Of a DNA stretch of 64,000 nucleotides, positions 33,264 through 62,213 are shown one piece after another; position 1 is the stretch's first letter; each line of letters begins with the position of its first letter. The translations under genes were made by a program, and so were the position numbers. Source of the stretch: an uncultured Gemmatimonadales bacterium (GTDB lineage Bacteria > Gemmatimonadota > Gemmatimonadetes > Gemmatimonadales > GWC2-71-9); assembly GCA_963844445.1 (NCBI GenBank), contig CAWJOB010000001.1:731746-795745 (forward strand). The letters run 5' to 3'. The notes beneath the pieces were generated by a model that saw only the letters and a list, made by a program, of their open reading frames with translations, was not told the DNA's origin and searched no databases.

Positions 33264-34651
33264 GGGTATCGCAGCGGGTGGGCGCGCTCGCCATGCTGGT
33301 CTCGGCTGGTGTGATCGTAGCCGCCGGGTGGCGGTCCATCACACCGCCCGCCCCGCCGCCGGCCGACGCCGTGAATCCGGCACGCTCCAGCGCCTGGCTC
33401 TCCCGGCTGCCCGACGGCGAAGTGAAGCGGAAGTTCATCCTCGACTGCACCGGGTGCCACCAGTTCGACGAGAAGATCGCCCGCCCGCAGGGGACGCCGC
33501 GCAGCGAGGCGCAGTGGGCCGAGGCGGTGACTCGGATGCTGGGTTACGCCGGCGCCAGCACCAGTTTCCCGGTGATCGCGGCGGATCGCGATGCGAAGGC
33601 GACCGCGGCGTGGCTGGCGAAGAGCCTCGCGGCGGGCGACGTGGCCGACGCGCAGGTCCCGAGATCGCGGCAGGCGGACGTGCGGGAATACCCGATGCCG
33701 GTGGCGCAGGACCTTCCGCACGATCTGATGGTCGAGCCCAACGGCGACGTGGTGATCACCGGAATGTTCACTCACCGGCTCTACCGCCTGAAGCCGGAGA
33801 GCGGCGCGCTGAGCGAGATCCCGATCCCGGTGGCGGAGGGCGCCAATCCGCGGGCCATCGACCGCGATGCGTCGGGCCGCACGTGGGTGGTGCTGGGGCA
33901 GCCCAAGCAGCTCGCGTCCGTCGCTGCCGACACGCAGTGGCGCAGCTGGGACGTGGGGATGTATCCCCACAGCCTGGCCATGGCGCCCGACGGGAAGGTC
34001 TGGTTCAACGGGCACTTCACCCACGCGCCCGAGCTCATCGGCGTCGTCGATCCCGCCGGCGACAAAGTCACCACGTACCCGGTGCCGCCGCATCCCACCC
34101 TGGCGAAGGGGCCGGGTGGGCCGATCCCCTACGAGATCCGCGCGAGCCGCGACGGACGGATCTGGCTGAGCGAGCTCCAGGGCAACCGCCTCGTGGCATT
34201 CACCCCCAAGACGGGGAAGTTTCAGACCTTCACCATGCCGACGTCCCACAGCGGGCCTCGGCGATTCGACGTGGACACCAAGGGCATACTCTGGATCCCG
34301 GCCTACTCGGCGAACTTGCTGGTTCGGCTCGATCCCGCGACCGGCAAGTTCACCGAGATCCCGCTGCCCATGAAGGACGTGCTGCCATACGTCGCCCGGG
34401 TGGATCCGCGCGACGGCGCCGTCTGGCTGGGCTCCGCCGCGGCGGACGTGCTGCTGCGGTACGATCCAGGCTCCCGACGATTCGACACCTTCCCGCTGCC
34501 CAGCCGGGGCGCGCTGGTCCGGCATCTGGCGGTGGACCCGCGGGATGGCGCCGTCTGGCTGGCCTACGGCGCGTCGCCCGGGATTCCGGCGCGCGTAGCG
34601 CGGGTGACGGGGTATTCGCCGCCTACCGTTCTCAAAAAGCGTGAAAAGTGA
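33260..34651 (+). CDS. cytochrome c (CxxCH) domain fused to a virginiamycin-B-lyase-like beta-propeller
   Basis: In ORF 32933..34651; ATG 33260 overlaps the upstream stop (ATGA). One TM/signal helix. Heme motif CTGCH. Repeated blades: DGKVWFNG, DGRIWLSELQGNRLVAFTPKTGKFQTF, GILWIPAYSANLLVRLDPATGKFTEI, DGAVWLG. Confidence 0.7.
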   Translation: MRVSQRVGALAMLVSAGVIVAAGWRSITPPAPPPADAVNPARSSAWLSRLPDGEVKRKFILDCTGCHQFDEKIARPQGTPRSEAQWAEAVTRMLGYAGASTSFPVIAADRDAKATAAWLAKSLAAGDVADAQVPRSRQADVREYPMPVAQDLPHDLMVEPNGDVVITGMFTHRLYRLKPESGALSEIPIPVAEGANPRAIDRDASGRTWVVLGQPKQLASVAADTQWRSWDVGMYPHSLAMAPDGKVWFNGHFTHAPELIGVVDPAGDKVTTYPVPPHPTLAKGPGGPIPYEIRASRDGRIWLSELQGNRLVAFTPKTGKFQTFTMPTSHSGPRRFDVDTKGILWIPAYSANLLVRLDPATGKFTEIPLPMKDVLPYVARVDPRDGAVWLGSAAADVLLRYDPGSRRFDTFPLPSRGALVRHLAVDPRDGAVWLAYGASPGIPARVARVTGYSPPTVLKKREK

Positions 34652-34737
34652 ACGGTGAACAGTGAAAAGGGATGGTCGCCCTTTTACCGTTCACCGTTCA
34701 CGCTTTTCTATCGTTGTTCACGCTTTTCTGTCGTTGC
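34634..34737. repeat. inverted arrays of GTGAAMN heptamers plus a tandem GTTCACGCTTTTCT(A/G)TCGTT pair; probable bidirectional terminator
   Basis: gtgaaaa gtgaacg gtgaaca gtgaaaa ggg / loop atggtcg / cccttttac cgttcac cgttcac gctttt. Then gttcacgcttttctatcgtt gttcacgcttttctgtcgtt. The repeat covers the last codons and the stop of the upstream gene. Confidence 0.85.
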
Positions 34738-36307: not shown

Positions 36308-36502
36308 CTTGGTATCTCCATCGTGGGAAACCCGAGGCGGACGGGAGCCGCCCTGACACCGCTTGGAATGCCCGAGACGCCGCCGCCGTCGCGCCCACGT
36401 TGCTCTTCGCATCGACCGAAACGAGGCTTGCCTGGGGCCCGTAGTCAGGCCATCATCCGGCCCCGGGCGGGGCGCCCCAGGACACCGATAACGGAGAGGC
36501 TG

Positions 36503-38501
36503 ATGGACAGCACGGCGATGGCAGCTCGCACCCCGATGGCGGGGCTACTGGTACTCCTTGCCCTGGCGGGATGCAGCTCGGGCCGCGCCGGCTCCTCCAG
36601 CCCCGAACCGGTCGCCGGCCCTGCCGGGACCGCCCCCGCCGGCACCCGCGCAATGGAGGTCCCCGCCATGGAGGCCTTCGACCTGGCGGTGGCCAAGGGC
36701 ACCCGCCTGCGGTCGGGCGCGCCGGGCCCCCGGTACTGGCAGCAGTGGGCCGACTACCGGCTGGAGGCCGAGCTCAATCCCGTCTCCAAGCGGCTCACCG
36801 GGAAAAGCGCGATCCGCTACTACAACCGGTCTCCCGACACCCTCAATACCGTCTACATCCAGTTGCTGCACAACATCTTCGCTCCCGGCAGCCGGCATAA
36901 CACCGACATCGCCTGGGCGGTCGAGGGATACGAGCTCTCGAAGGTGGCCGTGCAGGGCACCACCCTCAGCGCCGTCGCCGGCGAAGGCGCGGGCTACGAG
37001 GTGGACGGAACCATCATGCGGATCCGGCTGCCCAAGCCGCTGCTGCCGGGTGGGACCGCCGACCTGGAATTCGCCTACCGCATCCGGATTCCGCCCAATG
37101 GGGCGCCCCGGGGCGGGCAGGACGGCGAGGTCTACTACATCAGCTACTGGTACCCCCAGATGGCGGTGTACGACGACGTGAACGGCTGGCAGACCGATCA
37201 GTACTTACGGGAACGCCGAGTTCTACATGGGGTACGGCAATTACGACGTCGCCCTGACCGTCCCCGCGGGGTGGCTGGTGACCAGCACCGGTACGCTGAC
37301 CAATGCCGCGGAGGTCCTCTCCGAACAGACCCGGGCGCGGGTGGACTCCGCGATGAGCGCCAAGGAAGTCGTCCACGTGGTGAGCGAGACCGATCGCGGA
37401 GCGGGGAAGGCTACCGCCGCGGGCGCCGACGGGAAGCTGACCTGGCGCTTCCGGGCGGAAAACGTTCGCGACGTGGCCTGGGGTGCGTCGGCCAGCTACC
37501 TCTGGGACGCCACCAACGCCGCGGTCGGTGATGCCGACGGCGACGGCTCGGCGGACACCACCCGGGTGGACGCCTTCTGGCGGCCCGAGATGCGAACCAG
37601 CCACTGGGACCAGGCGGCCCGCTACGGCCGGCACTCGGTGGAGTTCCTCTCCAAGTACCTCTGGCCCTACCCGTATCCCCATATGACGGCGGTGGACGGG
37701 CCCACCTCCTGCGGCGGGATGGAGTACCCGATGATGACCTGCATCGGGGGCCAGTGGGACACGCTCGGCATGTACGAGGTCGTGGTCCACGAGATCGCCC
37801 ACATGTGGACCCCGATGCTGGTGGGCTCGGATGAGAAGCGGTTCGCCTGGATGGACGAGGGGTTGGCCCAGTTCAGCCAGTCGCAGGCCATGCCCGACTT
37901 CTTCAAGGGATACGACGACGAGGCGGAGAACCGGGAGCCGTACCTCAGTCTGGCGGTGACGGGCGGCGAGGTCGAGCTGATGCGCCACGGCGATCGCTAT
38001 CCTAACTACACCGCGTACGGCACGGCGAACTACTACAAGACCGCCACAGTGCTGGTGGCGCTGCGGGGCCTGCTGGGCAAAGAGACCTTCGAGAAGGCGC
38101 TCAAGGAGTACGGCCGGCGGTGGGAGTACAAGCACCCGACGCCGTACGATTTCTTCAATACGGTGGAGGACGTCGCGGGCCGTGATCTCTCCTGGTTCTG
38201 GCGCACCTGGTTCTTCGAGACCTGGAGGCTGGACCAGGCGATCGACACGGTCGCCGCCGTCGGCGACTCGCTCGAGGTGGTGGTATCGAACCGCGGCCGG
38301 GCGCCGATGCCGGTCCATCTGGTCGTCACCCGCTCGGAGGGACAGCCCCAGACCGTCGAGATCCCGGTCAGCGTCTGGTTCACCGGGGTGAAGCGCACCA
38401 CCGTCCGCATCCCCCGCGAGCCGGCGATCAAGACCATCGAGATCGATCCCAAGCAGGAGTTCCCGGACGTAGACCGGGGCAACGGGATGTGGCCCAGGTA
38501 G
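36503..38501 (+). pseudogene. M1-family (gluzincin) metallopeptidase lipoprotein, one frame break
   Basis: Frame of 36323..37531, from ATG 36503: MDSTAMAARTPMAGLLVLLALAGCS..WQTDQYL. Then frame of 37227..38501: NAEFYMGYGNYDVALTVP..VVVHEIAHMWTPMLVGSDEKRFAWMDEGLA (HExxH-18-E). Junction near 37210 (tactta[c]gggaac). Confidence 0.85.
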
Positions 38502-38512
38502 GGGGCGCAGAC

Positions 38513-38540
38513 GGGGGACGGCGGGACGGCGGGACGGGGG
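38513..38540 (+). repeat. (GGGACGGC)x3 repeat that forms a canonical G4 motif (four G3+ runs with loops of 5 nt or less)
   Basis: gggggacggcgggacggcgggacggggg, starting 12 nt after the M1 peptidase stop. It is the reverse-complement flavour of the GCCGTCC units downstream. Confidence 0.8.
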
Positions 38541-38562
38541 AAGCCTCCCTGGGCTTGGCCTG

Positions 38563-38644
38563 CCTCATCCCGAGCGCAGCGAGGGACCTGCCTTGCCGGC
38601 TTCGATAGCAGCCAGGTAGGTCCCTCGCTCCGCTCGGGATGAGG
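38563..38644. repeat. 27-31-bp-arm inverted repeat (REP-like hairpin, catcccgag...ctcgggatg type)
   Basis: Left arm cctcatcccgagcgcagcgagggacct (38563-38589). Right arm aggtccctcgctccgctcgggatgagg (38618-38644). One mismatch. The ends resemble those of the 13585 hairpin (tcatcccga / cgggatga). Confidence 0.9.
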
Positions 38645-38653
38645 TATCCTCGC

Positions 38654-38815
38654 GTCTGCCGTCTGCCGTCTGCCGTCTGCCGTCTGCCGTCTGCCGTCTG
38701 CCGTCTGCCGTCTGCCGTCTGCCGTCTGCCGTCTGCCGTCTGCCGTCTGCCCGTCTGCCGTCTGCCGTCTGCCGTCTGCCGTCTGCCGTCCGCCGTCCGC
38801 CGTCCGCCGTCCGCC
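38654..38815. repeat. heptanucleotide microsatellite: (GTCTGCC)14 + C + (GTCTGCC)5 + (GTCCGCC)4
   Basis: Counted directly. Unit starts run from 38654 to 38745 every 7 nt. There is an extra C at 38752. Five more units follow from 38753, then four GTCCGCC units at 38788-38815. The array ends 57 nt upstream of the otsAB ATG. Confidence 0.95.
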
Positions 38816-38871
38816 GTTCCGCCTCCCGCGTCCGCCGTTCCCCCCTCCCCCCTTTCGGCTACCTTTCCCCC

Positions 38872-41076
38872 ATGTCCCGTCTTCTGATCGTGGCCAACCG
38901 GCTGCCCGTCACGGTTCGTCCCACCGAGGCTGGCGTCGAGGTGGAGCGGAGCTCGGGTGGACTCGCCACCGGGTTGTCTCGGCCCCACGAGCAATCGGGG
39001 GGGCTCTGGATCGGGTGGTCCGGAGCGGAAGAGGAGCTGACGCCCGAGCAGCAAACCGCGTTCGACAGGCAGCTTGAGGAGCACCGGCTGGTCGCCGTCC
39101 CCCTCACCCGGGACCAGGTGACACGGTACTACGAGGGGTACTCCAACGGGGTGCTCTGGCCCCTCTTCCACTACCTGCTCGACCAGGTTCCGCTCCAGGC
39201 CAGCGACTGGGACGCCTACGTCGAGGTCAACGAGCTCTTCGCCGACGCCGTCGCGAAACAGTACCGCGCGGGCGACCTGATCTGGGTGCACGACTACCAG
39301 CTGCTTCTCCTGCCCGGCCTGCTTCGCCGCCGGCTCCCCGACTCCCGGATCGGCTTCTTCCTCCACATCCCGTTTCCCTCCGAGGAGCTGTTCCGGACTC
39401 TGCCGCCCCGGAGGCAGCTTCTCGAAGGGATGCTGGGCGCCGACCTCGTCGGCTTCCACACCCCCACCTATCTCCGCCACTTCGCCACCGCACTGACCGA
39501 CATCCTGGGCCTCACCGTGGACATCGATCGGGTACAGCTGCCCGGCCGCGAGGTCCGGCTCGGGGTCTTCCCTATGGGGATCGATGCCGCCTCGTTCCAG
39601 ACCCTGGCGAAGGACCCCGCGGTCGAGGCCGAGGCGGAGGCGCTCCGGGGCGACGGGAGCGTCCGCATCCTCGTCGGGGTCGACCGGCTCGACTACACCA
39701 AGGGAATTCCCCGGCGGCTGCTGGCCTACGAGCGGATGCTGGAGACCCATCCCGAGCTCCGCGAGAGGGTCCGGCTGGTGCAGGTCGCGGTCCCATCCCG
39801 CACCGGGGTCGGGGCATACCAGGACTTCCGCTCCCTGGTGGATGGGCTGGTGGGCCGGATCAACGGTGTGTTCGGCACGCCGCGCTGGGTGCCGGTGCAC
39901 TACATCTTCCGCGGCCTGTCCGCGCCCGACCTGGTGGCGCTCTACCGCGCCGCCGACGTGATGCTGGTGACTCCGCTCCGGGACGGGATGAACCTGGTGG
40001 CGAAAGAGTTCATCGCCTCCCGGCCGGATGGCGACGGCGTGCTGGTGCTGAGCGAGTTCGCCGGTGCGTCGTGGGAGCTTCCGGAGGCGCTGCCGGTCAA
40101 CCCCTACGACACCGAGGCCACGGCGGAGGTCTTCTTCCGGGCTCTTTCCATGGACCCCGACGAGCGGCGGGCGCGCCTCGCGCCGCTCCGCCAGCGGGTC
40201 GCCACCTTCGACGTCCACAGCTGGGTCACCTCGTTCCTCGATCAACTCGAGCGAGTGACCGGACCCGCCGTCCGGACCACGCCCACCGCGGGCGAGCCCG
40301 AGCTTCGGGAGGAGTTGAACCGCGCCCTGGAGCGGAACGACGAGCTGCTGCTCCTCCTCGACTACGATGGCACGCTGGTGCCGTTCACCGCGACGCCGGA
40401 GCTGGCGCGGCCCGACGCCGCCCTGGTGCGGCTCCTCCGCTCGCTGGCGAGCCGCCCGGAGACCGAGGTGCACATCGTCAGCGGCCGGAGCCGCGAGGCG
40501 CTGGAGCAGTGGGTCGGCAACCTTCCCATCTGGCTGCACGCGGAGCACGGCTTCTGGTCCCGGCCGCCCGGCCAGGCCGAGTGGACCCCGGCGGCGGACA
40601 TACACGGCACCTGGCGGGAGCCGGTGCTGGCGATCCTGCGCGACATCACCGCGCGTACCCCGGGCTCGCTCATCGAGGTGAAGGCGGTGGCCATCGCGTG
40701 GCACTACCGGCTGGCCGACCTGGAGACCGGCGCCCGACGGGCCAACGAGCTCCGGATCCATCTCAACCAGCTGCTCAGCAACCAGCCGGTCGAGATTCTC
40801 GCCGGCAATCGGGTCCTCGAGATCCGTCCCTACGGCGTCCACAAGGGCCGGATCATCCCCCCGATGTCCGCCGAGCGGGAGGCGCGGACGACCGTGGTGG
40901 CAATCGGAGACGACCGCACCGACGAGGATCTCTTCGCCTCGCTGCCGCCGGAGGCGATCAGCGCCCGGGTGGGCCCGGGCGCGACCCGGGCGCGCTTCCG
41001 GCTGGACGGGACCTCGGCGGTGCGCGGCGTGCTCCAGATGCTGGCGGACGCGGGCGTACGGGTCGATCTGGCATAG
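38872..41076 (+). CDS. otsA: bifunctional trehalose-6-phosphate synthase / trehalose-6-phosphate phosphatase (OtsA-OtsB fusion)
   Basis: ORF 38872..41076 (734 aa). GT20 N-terminus: [38 protein letters not shown]-terminal HAD phosphatase: [24 protein letters not shown]. Intact. Confidence 0.9.
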
Positions 41077-41080
41077 ACCG

Positions 41081-41619
41081 ATGAGCCCGCTGGTGCCCCC
41101 GGTCGAGCGAGCGCGACCACGTTGTGGGACCGGCCGACGCGCGCGTCACCCTGGTGGAGTACGGCGACTACGAGTGCCCCCATTGCGGGGCGCTCTATCC
41201 GGTGATCGAGGCGGCCCGGAAGGCCTTCGGCGGGAACCTGCGGTTCGCGTTCCGGCATTTCCCCTTGCGTTCGTCGCATCCCCACGCGCTTGCGGCGGCC
41301 AAGGCCGCGGAGGCGGCCGGCGAGCAGGGGCGGTTCTGGGAGATGCACGACCGGCTGTACCAGCGGCAGACGCAACTGGAGGATCGAGGACCTGGCGCGG
41401 CATGCGCGAAAGCTCGGGCTGGACGTGGCCCGCTTCCAGCGCGAGCTGACCGCGCGGGCCCACGAGGTGCGGATCCGCGAGGATCTGGCGAGCGCGGCCC
41501 AGAGCGGCGCGGGCGGGACACCCTCGCTCTTCATCAACGGTGAGCTGTACCAGAGCTCGCTCGACCGCGACGACGTGTTCGCGGCGCTGGCCCGAGCCGC
41601 CGTCGCGGCGGTTCCCTGA
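41081..41619 (+). pseudogene. DsbA-family thioredoxin-fold protein (CPHC), two frame breaks
   Basis: 41081 frame: MSPLVPPVERA. 41124 frame: DHVVGPADARVTLVEYGDYECPHCGALYP..GRFWEMHDRLYQRQTQLE. 41290 frame: IEDLARHARKLGLDVARFQREL..GTPSLFINGE. Junctions near 41112 and 41385. Confidence 0.75.
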
Positions 41620-41805
41620 ACCTAGGAGCGGTTATGGCCCGAAAGAGTTCGGAAGCCGCGCGCAACGCGGCGCGCGAGATCGGGCGGGTGACGGTCATCC
41701 GGCTCACGGGCTACTACCTGGTGGCCGGAGTCGCTCCTGCTCTGCCTCTCGGCCCTCCTCCCTCAGGAGGCCATCGCCCCGGCGGCGGGCCAGCCGCCGG
41801 CCGAT

Positions 41806-42654
41806 ATGCAGGGGGTGATCGAGTGGTTCCGCGGCCAGGTCGCGATGTTCCCCACCGGCACGCCCCGGTGGCTCGACGCCCTGCTCCAGATGGTCGCCGC
41901 GTTCCTGCTGGTCCTGCCGCTGGCCTTCGTGTACGTGCGCACCCGGACCCGGATCAAGTTCGATCACTCGCTGGTGCAGACGGTGATCGTGCTTCCGATC
42001 GTGGTGACGGCGATCCTGGTCGTCGTCCGCGACAGCCTGGCCCTCGCCTTCAGCCTCGCGGGCATCGTGGCGGCGGTCCGCTTCCGGAACAACCTCAAGG
42101 AGTCGGGCGACGCGGTCTACATCTTCGGCTCGATCGGCATCGGCTTCGCCACCGGCATCCACGCGATCTCGGTGGCGGCGGTGCTGTCGATCGTCTTCGT
42201 GGTCGTCGAGCTGGCGCTCTGGAAGTTCGACTTCAGCGCCGAATTCGAGCGGACCTTCGCCCGGCTCTGCCTGCCTTCGGGGGCCGACCTGGCGGATCTG
42301 CCTCAACTGAGCGACGCGCCGTCGAAGCCGGCGCCCGCCGGCAACGGCGCGGGAGACGACCGCAGCGTTCTGCTCCGGGTCTACGTGGACCGGGTGGAGG
42401 ACGCGCAGCCGGCCATCGAGGCCGTGCTGGCCCGCGACGCGAAGCGCTGGAGGCTGGAGCAGGTGGTGGCGGACACCAACGGCCCTCCCCTCCTGACCTA
42501 CCGAGTCCGGGCGCGAAAGAGCGTCGGCATGGACGGTCTGCGCGAACGGCTGCTTCGGGAGGGCGCGCCGCACGTCGTGGCCGCCGACCAGCCGCCCGGA
42601 CGTCCTGACGAGATTCTGTCATTCCGCGCATGGCTCGCGGAGGAGGGCCGGTGA
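41806..42654 (+). CDS. DUF4956-like membrane protein (the start may lie further upstream)
   Basis: ORF 41806..42654: LAFSLAGIVAAVRFRNNLKESGDAVYIFGSIGIGFATG. The upstream 41634-41805 region holds coding-looking text in two frames. Confidence 0.6.
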   Translation: MQGVIEWFRGQVAMFPTGTPRWLDALLQMVAAFLLVLPLAFVYVRTRTRIKFDHSLVQTVIVLPIVVTAILVVVRDSLALAFSLAGIVAAVRFRNNLKESGDAVYIFGSIGIGFATGIHAISVAAVLSIVFVVVELALWKFDFSAEFERTFARLCLPSGADLADLPQLSDAPSKPAPAGNGAGDDRSVLLRVYVDRVEDAQPAIEAVLARDAKRWRLEQVVADTNGPPLLTYRVRARKSVGMDGLRERLLREGAPHVVAADQPPGRPDEILSFRAWLAEEGR

Positions 42655-48766: not shown

Positions 48767-50167
48767 ATGATACGCCTTCGCTCTACCGCACTCGCCGCCG
48801 CCATGACTCTCGCGCTCTCCTCGGCCCCCGCTCTCGCTCAGGGCAGCGGCATCCCGGCGGCCTATCGTGCGGCCGCTGACAGCCTGATCGGTGCCGCCGT
48901 TCGGGACAGCGCTGCCTACGAGCGCCTGGGCCGGTTGGTGGACGGGTTCGGCCACCGGCTCGCGGGCTCACCGAGTCTCGAGTCGGCGATCGACTGGATT
49001 CTCGCCCAGATGAAGAAGGATGGTCTCCAGAACGTGCGCGGCGAGCCGGTGACCGTGACCCGCTGGGTGCGAGGCGAGGAATCCGCCATTCTGGTCCGCC
49101 CTCGCCGCGACACGCTCGCCATGCTCGGGCTGGGCGGAAGCGTGGCGACGCCGAAGGCGGGGATCACCGCGCCGGTGCTGGTCGTCACCAGCTTCCAGGA
49201 GTTGGAGCGGCGGAAGGCAGACGCCAGAGGGAAGATCGTCCTGTTCGACGTGCCGTTCACGAGGTACGAGGAGACCCGCCGCTATCGCACCGACGGCCCG
49301 TCCGCCGCGGCGCGAGCCGGCGCCGTGGCCTGTCTGATCCGCTCGGTGGCGTCGACCTCCATCCGGAGCCCGCACACCGGCCGGACCTCCTACGACAGCA
49401 CCGCCCCCCGCATTCCGGCCGCCGCGCTCAGCGTGGAGGACGCCATGATGCTCCACCGGATGCAGGAGCGCGGCGAGCCGGTCGTGCTGACGCTCCAGAT
49501 GGGCGCCCGGCAGCTTCCGCCCGCCCGGTCGCGCAACGTGGTGGCCGAGCTGGTCGGGAGGGAGAAGCCGGACGAGGTGGTGGTGCTCGGCGGGCACATC
49601 GACTCGTGGGACGTGGGGCAGGGGGCGATGGACGACGCCGGCGGGTCGGTGGCGGCGTGGGAGGCCGTGCGCCTCATGCACCAGCTCGGGCTCCGTCCCC
49701 GCCGGACTGTGCGAGTGGTGCTGTGGACCAACGAGGAGAACGGGGTGGAGGGAGGGAAGGCCTATCGCGACCGGCACCTGGGCAAGCTCGATCGACACGT
49801 CATGGCCATGGAGTCGGACGGCGGCGTCTTCCAGCCCAAGGGTTTCGCATTCGCCGGCTCGGACTCGGCCGCCGCGCTGGTGCGCCAGGCGGCCTCGCTG
49901 CTGGGGCCGATCGAGGCCACGGCCGTCGACCACGTGAGCCAGAGTCCCGAGGCCGACATCGGGCCGCTGGTGGAGGAGGACGTGCCGGGCATCGGCCTGG
50001 TGGTGGACGGCACTCGCTACTTCTGGTACCACCACGCTGACGGCGACACCCTCGACAAGCTCGACCCCGCCGAGGTGGCCCGGTGCGTCGCGGCGATGGC
50101 GGTGATGGCCTACGTAATCGCGGATTTGCCGGAGAGGTTGCCGAGGGCAGAACAGCGTGGACAGTAA
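48767..50167 (+). CDS. M28-family metallopeptidase (carboxypeptidase Q-like)
   Basis: In ORF 48692..50167, from ATG 48767. Signal sequence, then VVVLGGHIDSWDVGQGAMDDAGG, WTNEENGVEG and WYHHADGDT. Confidence 0.85.
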   Translation: MIRLRSTALAAAMTLALSSAPALAQGSGIPAAYRAAADSLIGAAVRDSAAYERLGRLVDGFGHRLAGSPSLESAIDWILAQMKKDGLQNVRGEPVTVTRWVRGEESAILVRPRRDTLAMLGLGGSVATPKAGITAPVLVVTSFQELERRKADARGKIVLFDVPFTRYEETRRYRTDGPSAAARAGAVACLIRSVASTSIRSPHTGRTSYDSTAPRIPAAALSVEDAMMLHRMQERGEPVVLTLQMGARQLPPARSRNVVAELVGREKPDEVVVLGGHIDSWDVGQGAMDDAGGSVAAWEAVRLMHQLGLRPRRTVRVVLWTNEENGVEGGKAYRDRHLGKLDRHVMAMESDGGVFQPKGFAFAGSDSAAALVRQAASLLGPIEATAVDHVSQSPEADIGPLVEEDVPGIGLVVDGTRYFWYHHADGDTLDKLDPAEVARCVAAMAVMAYVIADLPERLPRAEQRGQ

Positions 50168-50245
50168 ACAGTAAAAGGTGAACGGGTTACTTCCTCACCC
50201 CGTGACCCATTAACCCCCTTTCACTGTTCACCTTTCACTGTTCCC
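50163..50245. repeat. A/T-rich repeat element: ACAGTAAA x2 ... tandem CCTTTCACTGTTC x2; shares GGTGAACAGTGAAA with the 34.6 kb element
   Basis: The reverse complement of 50216-50232 is ggtgaacagtgaaaggg, and 34657-34674 is ggtgaacagtgaaaaggg. The element starts at the M28 stop codon. Confidence 0.8.
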
Positions 50246-59504: not shown

Positions 59505-62213
59505 ATGCGCGTGCGTGGCTGGTGGACGACTGTCGTGCTCGCAGGTGTCGCGGTAGCCTGCGGCGATCAACCGACCGAGGTGGTGCCCGAGCGGCAGCAG
59601 ATGACGCAGGGGCCGGGACTCATCGCCCTCGCGACGTCATCGTCGGACGATGGGCTCTCGATTACCACCGACAAGGACGATTACTCGCCGGGCGACACCG
59701 TGTGGTTCACCGGGGCCGGATGGCCAGCGAACGACACGCTGGACATCCTGCTCGAAGATGAGCCAGCGACGCACGAGCCGCATACGTGGTGGGTGCCGGT
59801 GGGGGAGGATGGCGGGTTTCGCGATTCGACATATGTGGTGGACATCAACGACATCGGTGTGAACTTCACCTTGACAGCGACCAGTCGAGCGACGGATCGC
59901 TGGCTGACGGTGCAGTTCACGGATGGCAACGTCAGGGTCACTGCCGCCCCTGACGGGGTCGTCTTCGTGGTAACCCGCACAGTGTTCAGCGCGGCGGGGT
60001 GCAGCGGGTCGATCAGCTTGGGCCCCAATACTTTCACGATCACCGCCGGTACAAACACCACTGTCGCCTCTGCCGGCGGCTCCGGACCGCCGTCAGTACG
60101 GCTTGTAGCCGCCGCGACCTCGGCGGCAGGAGCTTCGTTCGGGAGCTGGGCCGGGGACAAGCCGTTCACCGTCGATCCATCGGACACCAAGAGCATCTGC
60201 CTCAATGGGGACAATGGCAATCTGAGCTTCACGGCCACGTACAACGCGACTCCCGATCTCACCGTCTCGAAGGCGACCACTGGCGGCTTCGAGGTAGGCA
60301 GCACGAATGCTCAATACACCTTCGAGGTGTCGAACCCGGGTACCGCCACCGCCCAGGGTAGCGCCGCGAATCGCATCACGGTTACCGACGTCCTTCCAGC
60401 GGGCATCACCCCGCCCAGCTCGCCCTTTACTGTGAGCAACTGGAACTGCACGGTCACTGGGCAAACAGTCACGTGCCAGCTCGCGGCCGGTCAAACGATC
60501 ATTCCCGGTGCTTCGAGGACCTTCAGCTTCGGCGTCGGCATCACGCTCGCGGCCTGCCCGAGCGTCTCGAACTCGGCCAGCGTAGGCGGCGGCAACGAGC
60601 CAGCGGGCAATACCGGGAACAACACGAGTGCGGCCGTTGCGACCCCGATCTCCGCAGGCTGCCCCAACCCGAACCAGGCGCCGAGCGCCGACGCGGGTGA
60701 TGACAAGGAGGGCAACGAAGGCTCCGCGATCCAGCTGGACGGCAGCGGCTCGACCGACCCCGATGGCGATACGCCGCTCGAGTTCGAATGGACCGTCGTC
60801 ACGCCCCTGACGGGATTTGATGTCGGCGCGTCCTGCGGCCTGGACGACGCTTCGATCGAGAAGCCATCCATCACCTGCACCGACGACGGCATCGTGAAGG
60901 TGACGCTGAAGGTGAAGGACAGCGAGGGCTTGCCGTCGGCGAACGAGGATGAGGTCGAGGTCACCGTGAAGAACGTGAAACCTGCGGTGACGGTTTCGCC
61001 GGCGTCGAAGACCATCGCCGAGGGCGGAAGCGCCAGCTTCACGGCGACGGTGACGGACGTAGGCGCCAACGACGATCCCGATGATTTCGACTTTGACTGG
61101 ACCACGACCGTCAGCCCCTGCTCGCTGAGCGGTACGCCGACGCTCACGAGCGCGACCTTCTCCTGCAATGACAACGCGAGCGGCACGGTGAAGCTCACCG
61201 TGGACGATGGTGACGCGGATGGCGAAGCATTCGACGAAGCCAGCCTGACGGTCACCAATGTACCGCCGACGGCGAGTGGACTGACCACGAACAGCCCGGT
61301 GGCCGAGGGCAGCGACATCACCCTCTCACTCGCGGACGTCTTCGATCCGTCCACCGTCGACGCGGCGAGCCTGCGGTACGCCTTCGACTGCGGCGATGGG
61401 AACGGGTATGGCACGGCGACGAGCTATGCTACTGCGGGGGAAGAGAACGATGCGGATTGCCCCACGACCGACGACGGCACCCGCACCGTGAAGGGAAAAG
61501 TGTTCGACAAGGATGGCGGGTCCAACGAGTATACGGAATCGGTGACGATCACCAACGTGCCACCGTCGATCCAGAGTCTCACGACGCCAGTCGGGGGCCC
61601 GCTTCCGGCTTCGATCGCCATCGGAGCGACCCTCGACATCAAAGTCACCTTCACTGATCCGGGAAGTGGCGATACGCACACGGCCAAGATCGATTGCGGC
61701 ACCGGGTATAGCGATGTCGACAGCGGCAATGATGTCGCCTCGCCGTTCCAGACTTCCTGTACGTTTGCTACCGTCGGATCAAAGACGATCAAAGTGAAGG
61801 TTACGGATGACGACGGCGGCTACGACGTGGAGTCGCATGTGATCAGCGTCCTGTACAATTTCGAAGGACTCTTTGCCCCGGTCGACCGGCCGAATACGAT
61901 GAATGTTTCCAAGGCAGGCCAGTCGATTCCACTCAAGTGGAGGCTGACCGACTTTCAGGGCGCGCCGATTCTCGACTTCTCCCCTGCGGCTTTAGGAGTC
62001 GCGGTCAGCGGGTTGCAGTGCACGGTCTCGACCTCGCTCGACCAGATCGAGGAGTATGCCGGTAATTCGGGTCTCCAAAACCTCGGCGACGGCTACTACC
62101 AGTTCAACTGGAAGACCCCTCCCGCCTACGCGAACAGCTGCAAGGCGGTCGGGCTCAACCTCGGAGAGGCATCGCCTCGTGGGCCGCTGGCATACTTCAA
62201 CTTCAAGAAGTAA
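59505..62213 (+). CDS. large surface lipoprotein: DUF11-type repeat, four PKD-like modules, C-terminal PxKF-like domain
   Basis: In ORF 59364..62213, from ATG 59505 (RBS AAGGAGG). Lipobox VVLAGVAVACG. DUF11-like: LTVSKATTGG..YTFEVSNPGTA..VTDVLPAGI. Modules start V(T/K)NV(P/K)P. PKD-like: DAGDDKEGNEGSAIQLDGSGSTDPDGD. C-terminus: NVSKAGQSIPLKW..YYQFNWKTP..CKAVGLNL..AYFNFKK. Confidence 0.8.
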   Translation: MRVRGWWTTVVLAGVAVACGDQPTEVVPERQQMTQGPGLIALATSSSDDGLSITTDKDDYSPGDTVWFTGAGWPANDTLDILLEDEPATHEPHTWWVPVGEDGGFRDSTYVVDINDIGVNFTLTATSRATDRWLTVQFTDGNVRVTAAPDGVVFVVTRTVFSAAGCSGSISLGPNTFTITAGTNTTVASAGGSGPPSVRLVAAATSAAGASFGSWAGDKPFTVDPSDTKSICLNGDNGNLSFTATYNATPDLTVSKATTGGFEVGSTNAQYTFEVSNPGTATAQGSAANRITVTDVLPAGITPPSSPFTVSNWNCTVTGQTVTCQLAAGQTIIPGASRTFSFGVGITLAACPSVSNSASVGGGNEPAGNTGNNTSAAVATPISAGCPNPNQAPSADAGDDKEGNEGSAIQLDGSGSTDPDGDTPLEFEWTVVTPLTGFDVGASCGLDDASIEKPSITCTDDGIVKVTLKVKDSEGLPSANEDEVEVTVKNVKPAVTVSPASKTIAEGGSASFTATVTDVGANDDPDDFDFDWTTTVSPCSLSGTPTLTSATFSCNDNASGTVKLTVDDGDADGEAFDEASLTVTNVPPTASGLTTNSPVAEGSDITLSLADVFDPSTVDAASLRYAFDCGDGNGYGTATSYATAGEENDADCPTTDDGTRTVKGKVFDKDGGSNEYTESVTITNVPPSIQSLTTPVGGPLPASIAIGATLDIKVTFTDPGSGDTHTAKIDCGTGYSDVDSGNDVASPFQTSCTFATVGSKTIKVKVTDDDGGYDVESHVISVLYNFEGLFAPVDRPNTMNVSKAGQSIPLKWRLTDFQGAPILDFSPAALGVAVSGLQCTVSTSLDQIEEYAGNSGLQNLGDGYYQFNWKTPPAYANSCKAVGLNLGEASPRGPLAYFNFKK

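Follow-up and report, generated by a model that had tools for sequence, protein, structure and literature searches.

The GGGNATC heptamers of Xanthomonas and Nostoc are G-rich, dispersed and quadruplex-forming (Rehm et al. 2015, PMC4692102). The repeats described here resemble them in being tandem units of 7-8 nt found genome-wide and mostly in non-coding DNA, in forming arrays of 2 to ~26 units with four preferred, and in carrying the G-rich strand just past stop codons and its complement just upstream of ORFs (PMC4692102). Unlike the GGGNATC repeats, the arrays here occur as inverted pairs, each pair making a single long palindrome that often encloses a nested hairpin; their unit is a different one that changes between species at the same site and is not G4-prone in its expanded form. 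Among the marks of the GGGNATC class, the four-unit preference and the G-strand behind stop codons are present, and the GGGNATC unit itself is absent. The cyanobacterial STRR heptamers are a related class of dispersed repeats.

In Haemophilus influenzae, hmw1A and hmw2A carry an (ATCTTTC)n tract of 9-28 copies whose number is inversely correlated with transcript level (PMC2424069), and the hmw1A repeat sits in an RNA hairpin with a G-rich partner arm that is cut by RNase III (PMC12721329). The locus described here likewise has a pyrimidine-rich 7-bp unit upstream of a gene and a G-rich pairing region in a long RNA hairpin. The hmw repeats, however, form part of the transcribed 5' UTR, vary between isolates and correlate in number with expression, whereas the tract ahead of otsAB lies upstream of a predicted leaderless promoter and is part of a genome-wide family.

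Two further systems invite comparison. The REP, BIME and REPIN elements of proteobacteria are matched here by dispersed extragenic palindromes flush with gene ends, by BIME-like composites and by 33 uniform hairpins of ~77 nt; the elements differ from REP sequences in that their arms are tandem microsatellites instead of a fixed palindrome and are spelled differently at orthologous sites. The Beggiatoaceae carry abundant intergenic direct repeats of the heptamer TAACTGA, for which a regulatory role was proposed (PMC4679880). The unit differs from ours, and the TAACTGA repeats are reported to be mostly direct, with only one indirect set (PMC4679880). No description of a palindromic family with arms of 7-8-nt units was found in the searchable literature, and the literature searched held no relevant description of the arm octamer, the hairpin core or REP elements in Gemmatimonadetes.

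A heptamer array in the peptidase-otsAB spacer

The window analysed here is a stretch of 64,000 nt (C1:731746-795745) from the assembly of an uncultured Gemmatimonadales bacterium, which comprises 4.56 Mb in 7 contigs at 69% GC and is 85% complete. Within it, a peptidase gene is followed by otsAB, and the whole 370-nt spacer between the two is one composite palindrome consisting of a G-rich arm (G-arm), a REP-like hairpin of ~80 nt and a C-rich arm (C-arm) that holds the heptamer array. In window positions, the features are as follows.

37227 to 38501, forward strand: upstream M1-family peptidase-like gene, 3' part, with a TAG stop at 38499-38501 (Pfam Peptidase_M1, E 2.4e-19)
38502 to 38540, forward strand: G-arm, ~4-5 G-rich 7-8-nt units of the GGCGGGAC type, abutting the stop codon (TRF, genome scan, RNA fold)
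38563 to 38644, no strand assigned: REP-like long hairpin with core CATCCCGAGCG ... CGCTCGGGATG (RNA fold; 33 genome copies of ~77 nt)
38654 to 38751, forward strand: inner C-arm block, 14 perfect GTCTGCC units (exact parse)
38752, forward strand: lone C between blocks (exact parse)
38753 to 38787, forward strand: second block, 5 perfect GTCTGCC units (exact parse)
38788 to 38815, forward strand: 4 GTCCGCC units, complementary to the G-arm (exact parse, RNA fold, sister alignment)
38816 to 38852, forward strand: degenerate end of the C-arm, with GTTCCGCC, TCCCGC, GTCCGCC, GTTCCCCCC and TCCCCCC (sequence)
38872 to 41076, forward strand: otsA-otsB fusion, trehalose-6-phosphate synthase/phosphatase, 734 aa (Pfam Glyco_transf_20, Trehalose_PPase)

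An earlier note on this DNA had described the array as 14 units, an extra C, 5 units and 4 units followed by a degenerate tail, and the same make-up was recovered by exact parsing and by Tandem Repeats Finder (TRF), which reported 38653-38817 with period 7, 23.4 copies, 98% matches and a score of 293. In the genome-wide TRF run, the array is the top-scoring short-period repeat and the longest microsatellite of the 4.56-Mb assembly, and a pattern search of the whole assembly placed a GTCTGCC array at this single site. Such an array cannot have arisen by chance. The gene directly downstream, which the same note had named as a trehalose gene, is confirmed by Pfam as a fusion of GT20 (E 7e-153) and trehalose-phosphatase (E 1e-49) domains, and 56 nt separate the array end at 38815 from its ATG at 38872. 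Its product has full-length homologues in the thousands among 5.8 billion proteins, the closest being 91% identical, and the upstream peptidase is 87% identical to the C-terminal 430 aa of an orthologue. Translation of the array gives CRLPSAV repeats, which the earlier note took to be non-coding; the codon-usage gene caller agreed, finding 0 genes in 38502-38871, and a coding reading of these repeats was rejected.

The blocks of the C-arm appear to differ in age. The GTCCGCC block at 38788-38815 aligns with the GTCCGCCC units of a sister species (see below) and, as judged by that alignment, represents the older, unexpanded spelling of the C-arm. The lone C at 38752 is either the relic of an octamer unit (GTCTGCCC) or an assembly indel; the units of the sister species are octamers with a CCC end. 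Two C6 runs lie in the tail between the array and the otsAB ATG, and the tail from CCGTTCCCCCC (38834) onward, together with the sequence that follows, is common to the nearest relative in the genome set (L010).

Structure of the composite palindrome

The G-arm was reported by TRF at 38510-38541 with period 8 and 4.3 copies, and was recovered in a genome-wide arm scan at C1:770255-770285, with the whole locus at C1:770255-770556. Folded as RNA, the spacer reaches -183.5 kcal/mol (z -4.66). In this fold the G-arm pairs with the distal C-arm, from the GTCCGCC block through the GTCCGCC at 38830-38836 and on into the tail, and the REP-like hairpin forms a separate fold in the minimum-energy structure as in the centroid. 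The centroid leaves the GUCUGCC run without partners, and the array folded by itself as DNA shows no self-structure (z +4.98). An Rfam identity for the REP-like hairpin was sought and returned only sub-threshold matches to plant and animal miRNAs, which were rejected as generic hairpin similarity.

A search of 38300-39000 for terminator-like sites (a GC-rich hairpin followed by a U-tract) found none, the REP-like hairpin being followed by GGTATCC. An insulator or terminator role for the hairpin is speculative, since no U-tract follows it. The unpaired run is C-rich, with 3 C versus 2 G per unit, and a Rho gene is present in the genome, so that the GUCUGCC run could possibly serve as a Rho entry site on RNA reading through from the peptidase gene. 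A further reading would make the run a rheostat at the RNA level and not by way of promoter spacing: on RNA reading out of the peptidase gene the G-arm would fold onto the distal C-arm, and the unpaired GUCUGCC run, with a length altered by slippage, would set the efficiency with which Rho or RNase III ends or cuts that RNA. We regard this as improbable. If true, it would make the link between the peptidase and trehalose production adjustable from cell to cell in an uncultured soil bacterium, giving a free-living, high-GC lineage its own counterpart of the hmw1A 5'-UTR mechanism.

A predicted leaderless promoter for otsAB

The earlier note had pointed out that the otsAB ATG lacks a Shine-Dalgarno sequence, which the sequence bears out. 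An explanation is suggested by a motif just ahead of the start codon.

38860 to 38865 (-12 to -7 from the A of the ATG), forward strand: TACCTT, predicted -10 box of a leaderless otsAB mRNA (TAnnnT spike, conservation)

A TANNNT motif near -12 is a mark of leaderless genes (PMC3160421). Across this genome, 91 genes have a TAnnnT that begins precisely at -12 relative to the start codon, versus a background of ~12 at neighbouring positions, and the narrower TAnnTT[TG] stands there in 32 genes versus a background of ~1. TACCTTT or a near variant precedes the ATG in most otsAB orthologues, some of which have spacers of 21-22 nt. With TACCTT at -12 to -7 and no Shine-Dalgarno sequence, otsAB carries the marks of a leaderless gene, and its transcript most likely has no leader, with a 5' end at the A of the ATG or adjacent to it. 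Such a promoter would explain the missing Shine-Dalgarno sequence, leaving nothing in it to be attributed to the repeat. A scan of the spacer region for consensus sigma-70 promoters returned 0 sites; the -35 region, GTTCCC at 38837-38842, lies inside the degenerate last units of the C-arm.

It had also been proposed that a change in copy number would alter the geometry of the promoter or UTR. From its position at -218 to -57, the perfect array would not reach the core promoter, and the predicted transcript has no 5' UTR. Because the array ends at -57, upstream of the -35 region, changes in unit number would leave the spacing of the core promoter and the UTR geometry unaltered, and with the -10 box at -12 to -7 and the start site as predicted, the proposal is not supported. 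Compared with described contingency loci, the site does have a long, perfect, slippable tract; with the start placed as predicted, this tract is not in a -35/-10 spacer, a 5' UTR or an ORF.

These data bear on the possibility that the tract is a contingency or rheostat locus, in which slippage alters the unit number and so tunes or switches otsAB across the population, either through upstream promoter geometry or through a read-through hairpin of G-arm and C-arm cut by RNase III, as in the hmw1A 5' UTR. The perfect runs of 14 and 5 units are well above the lengths of frequent slippage, the tract lies near the promoter, and the genome's three longest arms are all start-facing. There is precedent in hmw1A/hmw2A, with 9-28 copies of a 7-bp unit (PMC2424069), and the RNase III-cleaved hmw hairpin with its G-rich partner arm (PMC12721329) resembles the pairing of G-arm and C-arm here. 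Against this, a tract that ends at -57 from the predicted leaderless start would change neither the -35/-10 spacing nor a UTR, and further evidence against it comes from the rest of the genome and from relatives, as described below.

A genome-wide family of paired arms

A regular-expression scan of the genome, requiring at least 3 units per arm, identified 148 arms of 7-8-nt units. Arms within 400 nt of each other formed 48 pairs in the G-then-C order and 0 in the C-then-G order, and the otsAB locus is one of the 8 pairs that enclose a REP-like core. Arm length has its mode at four units (75 of the 148 arms). The longest arm is the otsAB array at 156 nt, followed by arms of 120, 96 and 80 nt, and one-sided asymmetry is seen in other pairs of the genome as well (120/32, 72/24 and 24/64 nt). 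In the genome-wide TRF run, period 8 is the commonest among arrays of at least 5 copies, period 3 aside; nearly all of the period-8 units are rotations or close variants of GGCGGAAC, and the arrays often form inverted pairs. The units of the family are of the GGCGGAAC, GGCGGGAC and GGCAGAC types.

Throughout the genome the REP-like hairpin was counted 33 times (for example C3:536254-536330 and C4:722974-723049), each copy being 74-84 nt long and sharing a conserved core. Arms flank 13 of these 33 hairpins on one or both sides, with the G-arm always on the left and the C-arm always on the right, and the hairpin lies at the centres of octamer palindromes far more often than chance placement would give (13 of 33). 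The two hairpin half-sites occur 65 and 62 times versus 3-4 times for reversed controls. For the arm regular expression and the unit pattern search, reversed-sequence controls are uninformative, because the units read the same backwards up to rotation. No Y1 (RAYT) transposase (PF01797) was found in the genome, which is 85% complete; this is a further difference from REPINs, and a REPIN/RAYT identity in the strict sense was set aside on this ground. The marks of a palindromic family are present throughout, namely the G-centre-C order, many intergenic copies near gene ends, and arms that are complementary despite changes in spelling. The array had earlier been read as a device of this particular locus; that reading gives way to one arm of a genome-wide palindromic family, in an element that is absent or tiny in many relatives.

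Gene context was assessed with 3845 genes from a home-made codon-usage gene caller. The pairs fall into tandem, divergent and convergent spacers in a ratio of 35/8/5 versus 2857/490/491 for the genome, which is about the genome proportions, and their distances to the flanking genes are mostly 0-60 nt. A reading of the elements by terminator context was tried and dropped, there being no enrichment between convergent genes. In the arm family the G-rich strand comes after stop codons and its complement ahead of gene starts. Whether an arm faces a gene start (n=39) or a gene end (n=46) makes no difference to its length (Mann-Whitney p = 0.24); the top three by length (156, 120 and 96 nt) are all start-facing.

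The locus could also be a structural module in which a G-quadruplex of the G-arm, a C-rich i-motif or antisense G4, and the hairpin would affect transcription or mRNA stability, with the heptamer run acting as a spacer. This would be modelled on the proposal made for the GGGNATC repeats of Xanthomonas and Nostoc. The G-arm sequence matches the canonical G-quadruplex motif (G3+N1-7 x4), and this motif, the four-unit preference and the placement of the G-rich strand behind stop codons with its complement ahead of gene starts have all been reported for quadruplex-forming heptamer repeats (PMC4692102). However, the antisense unit GGCAGAC has one GG per unit and adds little G4 potential, and the spelling of orthologous units varies widely and includes AT-containing units without G-runs, which argues against a G4-specific role. 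A structural module of this kind therefore seems quite unlikely.

Several other repeats were noted in the scan. The second-longest microsatellite, 15 copies of GGAACGGC at C3:536116-536237, is an arm of another composite element; the gene that begins 36 nt downstream of it has TAGCTT at -12, a further promoter of the leaderless type. Of the 148 arms, 50 run into predicted coding sequence, and long ORFs contain several entire palindromes (for example C1:168608-168863 and C4:488437-488542); these overlaps may be in-frame insertions or errors of the simple gene caller. A second repeat family consists of AT-richer heptads (GTGAAAA, GTGAACG, CCTTTCA and others) in arrays of ~4 units, often as inverted pairs, with dozens of copies in the genome, including 34641-34736, 50161-50243 and 60894-60918 in the window.

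The same locus in related genomes

The order of peptidase then otsAB is kept across the genus. The spacers, including the one at this locus, measure 0, 9, 17, 21, 22, 29, 32, 45, 51, 73, 77, 86, 104, 148, 150, 170, 179 and 370 nt, and many relatives with the same -10 box have little or nothing of the element (spacers of 0-32 nt). Since spacers range down to 0 nt, the element is dispensable. The longer spacers of relatives hold palindromic elements with units AGCTGATA, GGCGATAG/CTATCGCC, GAGTCGC/GACTCGT and GGGAGTC/GACTCC. Within each species the arms are complementary, although the spelling of the unit differs between species at the orthologous spacer.

Among metagenome contigs encoding the OtsAB proteins nearest to this one (85-91% identity), one sister species stands out. 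Four independent assemblies of it share a single OtsAB sequence, which matches the product here at 89% identity, and its locus has a G-arm, the same hairpin and the same promoter. Its spacer is 195-196 nt long, and its C-arm consists of four octamer units of the GTCCGCCC type, with no 14-unit GTCTGCC block at the same position. The four assemblies differ from one another by point changes and one single-base length change, and their unit number is constant. The shared architecture with a four-octamer C-arm in the sister indicates that the array is a lineage-specific, one-sided expansion; on this comparison, the composite element is inherited and the ~170-nt extension of the C-arm specific to the lineage. 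The copy-number comparison with relatives that the earlier note had called for thus yields a C-arm of 4 octamers in all four sister assemblies versus 23 units here. A conspecific was looked for by exact look-up of the OtsAB protein, which gave no match, and by metagenome scans with the left and promoter junctions, which gave 0 matches.

The species whose OtsAB is nearest to this one (91%) has a capsule-synthesis-like gene of 281 aa (PF05704, L159:575-1420) inserted between the peptidase and otsAB, and a C-arm-like array (GTCCCGCC x3, CCGCTGCC x3) still stands ahead of the otsAB promoter.

These comparisons weigh against slippage as a switch or rheostat for otsAB. The element is dispensable, with relatives keeping the -10 box behind spacers of ~20-30 nt; the array is specific to one lineage and belongs to a genome-wide family without promoter preference; and the four sister assemblies show no variation in copy number, although their arms have only four units. 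We consider regulation of otsAB by unit number to be unlikely.

The unit in other bacteria and the reliability of the assembly

In a species-representative genome set, at least 4 exact GTCTGCC units were found on more than 120 contigs from many phyla among the matches listed, the hosts among these matches including Gemmatimonadetes, many Streptomyces, Acidobacteriota, Chloroflexota and Bacteroidota. The longest GTCTGCC array among 80 loci inspected has 17 units, allowing at most 1 mismatch per unit. The earlier note had held perfect arrays of this length to be unusual in such bacteria. This stands only in part, given dozens of 7-8-nt arrays in this genome and the more than 120 contigs elsewhere; 23 units is at the top of the observed range, and not beyond it.

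GTCTGCC and its one-base variants (CTCTGCC, GTTTGCC, ATCTGCC and GTCCGCC) form block-wise intergenic mixtures in many phyla and in many Streptomyces. One Streptomyces locus has 9 GTCTGCC units followed by 7 GTCCGCC units, the same two-block pattern as here, and a Latescibacterota contig has ~30 mixed units.

Frame changes relative to intact orthologues are seen in two conserved genes just downstream, in a dsbA-like gene (41085-41574) near 41385 and in a DUF4956 gene (41634-42582) near 41761-41789. Upstream, two long ORFs in different frames, 36323-37531 and 37227-38501, overlap at 37227-37531, and the peptidase gene may be split across them. The frame breaks and the possible peptidase split are likely to be assembly indels. 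With breaks in conserved genes so close by, small indel errors may likewise affect the lone C and the copy number as counted.

These errors could be taken further, to suggest that a long-read assembler had made up the array, or had greatly expanded or collapsed it, in view of the frame breaks in two conserved genes within 3 kb downstream and of an extra C that is of the error type of long-read data. We find this very unlikely. Long reads easily span 165 nt, and clean blocks of 14 and 5 perfect units are unlike a noisy consensus. Many independent assemblies, a good part of them with contig names in the short-read style, contain arrays of the same unit of up to 17 copies (at most 1 mismatch per unit), and the two-block pattern recurs in Streptomyces. 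Independent assemblies also contain orthologues of the flanking arm and hairpin. The array itself is beyond doubt because of its modest length, its clean blocks and these orthologous flanks, and real doubt is limited to the extra C and to the exact count, within a few units.

Origin and significance of the array

Taken as a whole, the evidence favours the view, which we hold to be probable, that the array is the hyper-expanded C-arm of a dispersed palindromic element, a largely neutral and slippage-prone by-product and not a dedicated regulator. The ancestral C-arm would have had about four GTCCGCC(C) units. GTCTGCC, a CpG C-to-T variant of GTCCGCC, would then have multiplied to 19 copies, in this arm alone, with replication slippage as the likeliest process. 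The pure blocks of the GTCTGCC variant suggest that this spread was recent. The earlier description of the array as slippage-prone in type fits these one-variant blocks and the fast turnover of the orthologous spacer; for this locus, slippage is the process that the sequence suggests.

The expansion would form an unpaired, C-rich insert inside the palindrome, with the G-arm still pairing with the old distal units of the C-arm. With the -10 box TACCTT placed 6 nt ahead of the ATG and the -35 region in the degenerate last C-arm units, the perfect tract would remain outside the promoter and UTR. Any effect would then be indirect, by way of peptidase read-through RNA carrying a long stem and a 130-nt unstructured, C-rich tail; the stem and tail could end, process or insulate the peptidase transcript before otsAB.

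Some points run against a neutral origin. The start-facing position of the three longest arms is an anecdotal hint of a possible relation to promoters. Repeats upstream of promoters can modulate expression elsewhere, as in the case of the nadA TAAA repeat.

For the locus itself, the main outcome is a correction: on the reading as a hyper-expanded C-arm, the conspicuous microsatellite beside a stress gene is the overgrown arm of a dispersed repeat element, and the absent Shine-Dalgarno sequence would reflect leaderless transcription, with nothing odd about it that concerns the repeat. The wider interest lies in the family, which consists of paired complementary arrays of 7-8-nt units, usually four units long, flush between genes and sometimes arranged around a hairpin. 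It offers a natural system for studying how palindromic microsatellites arise and how their arms stay complementary, and for asking whether such elements serve as transcript boundaries in high-GC bacteria without classical U-tract terminators.
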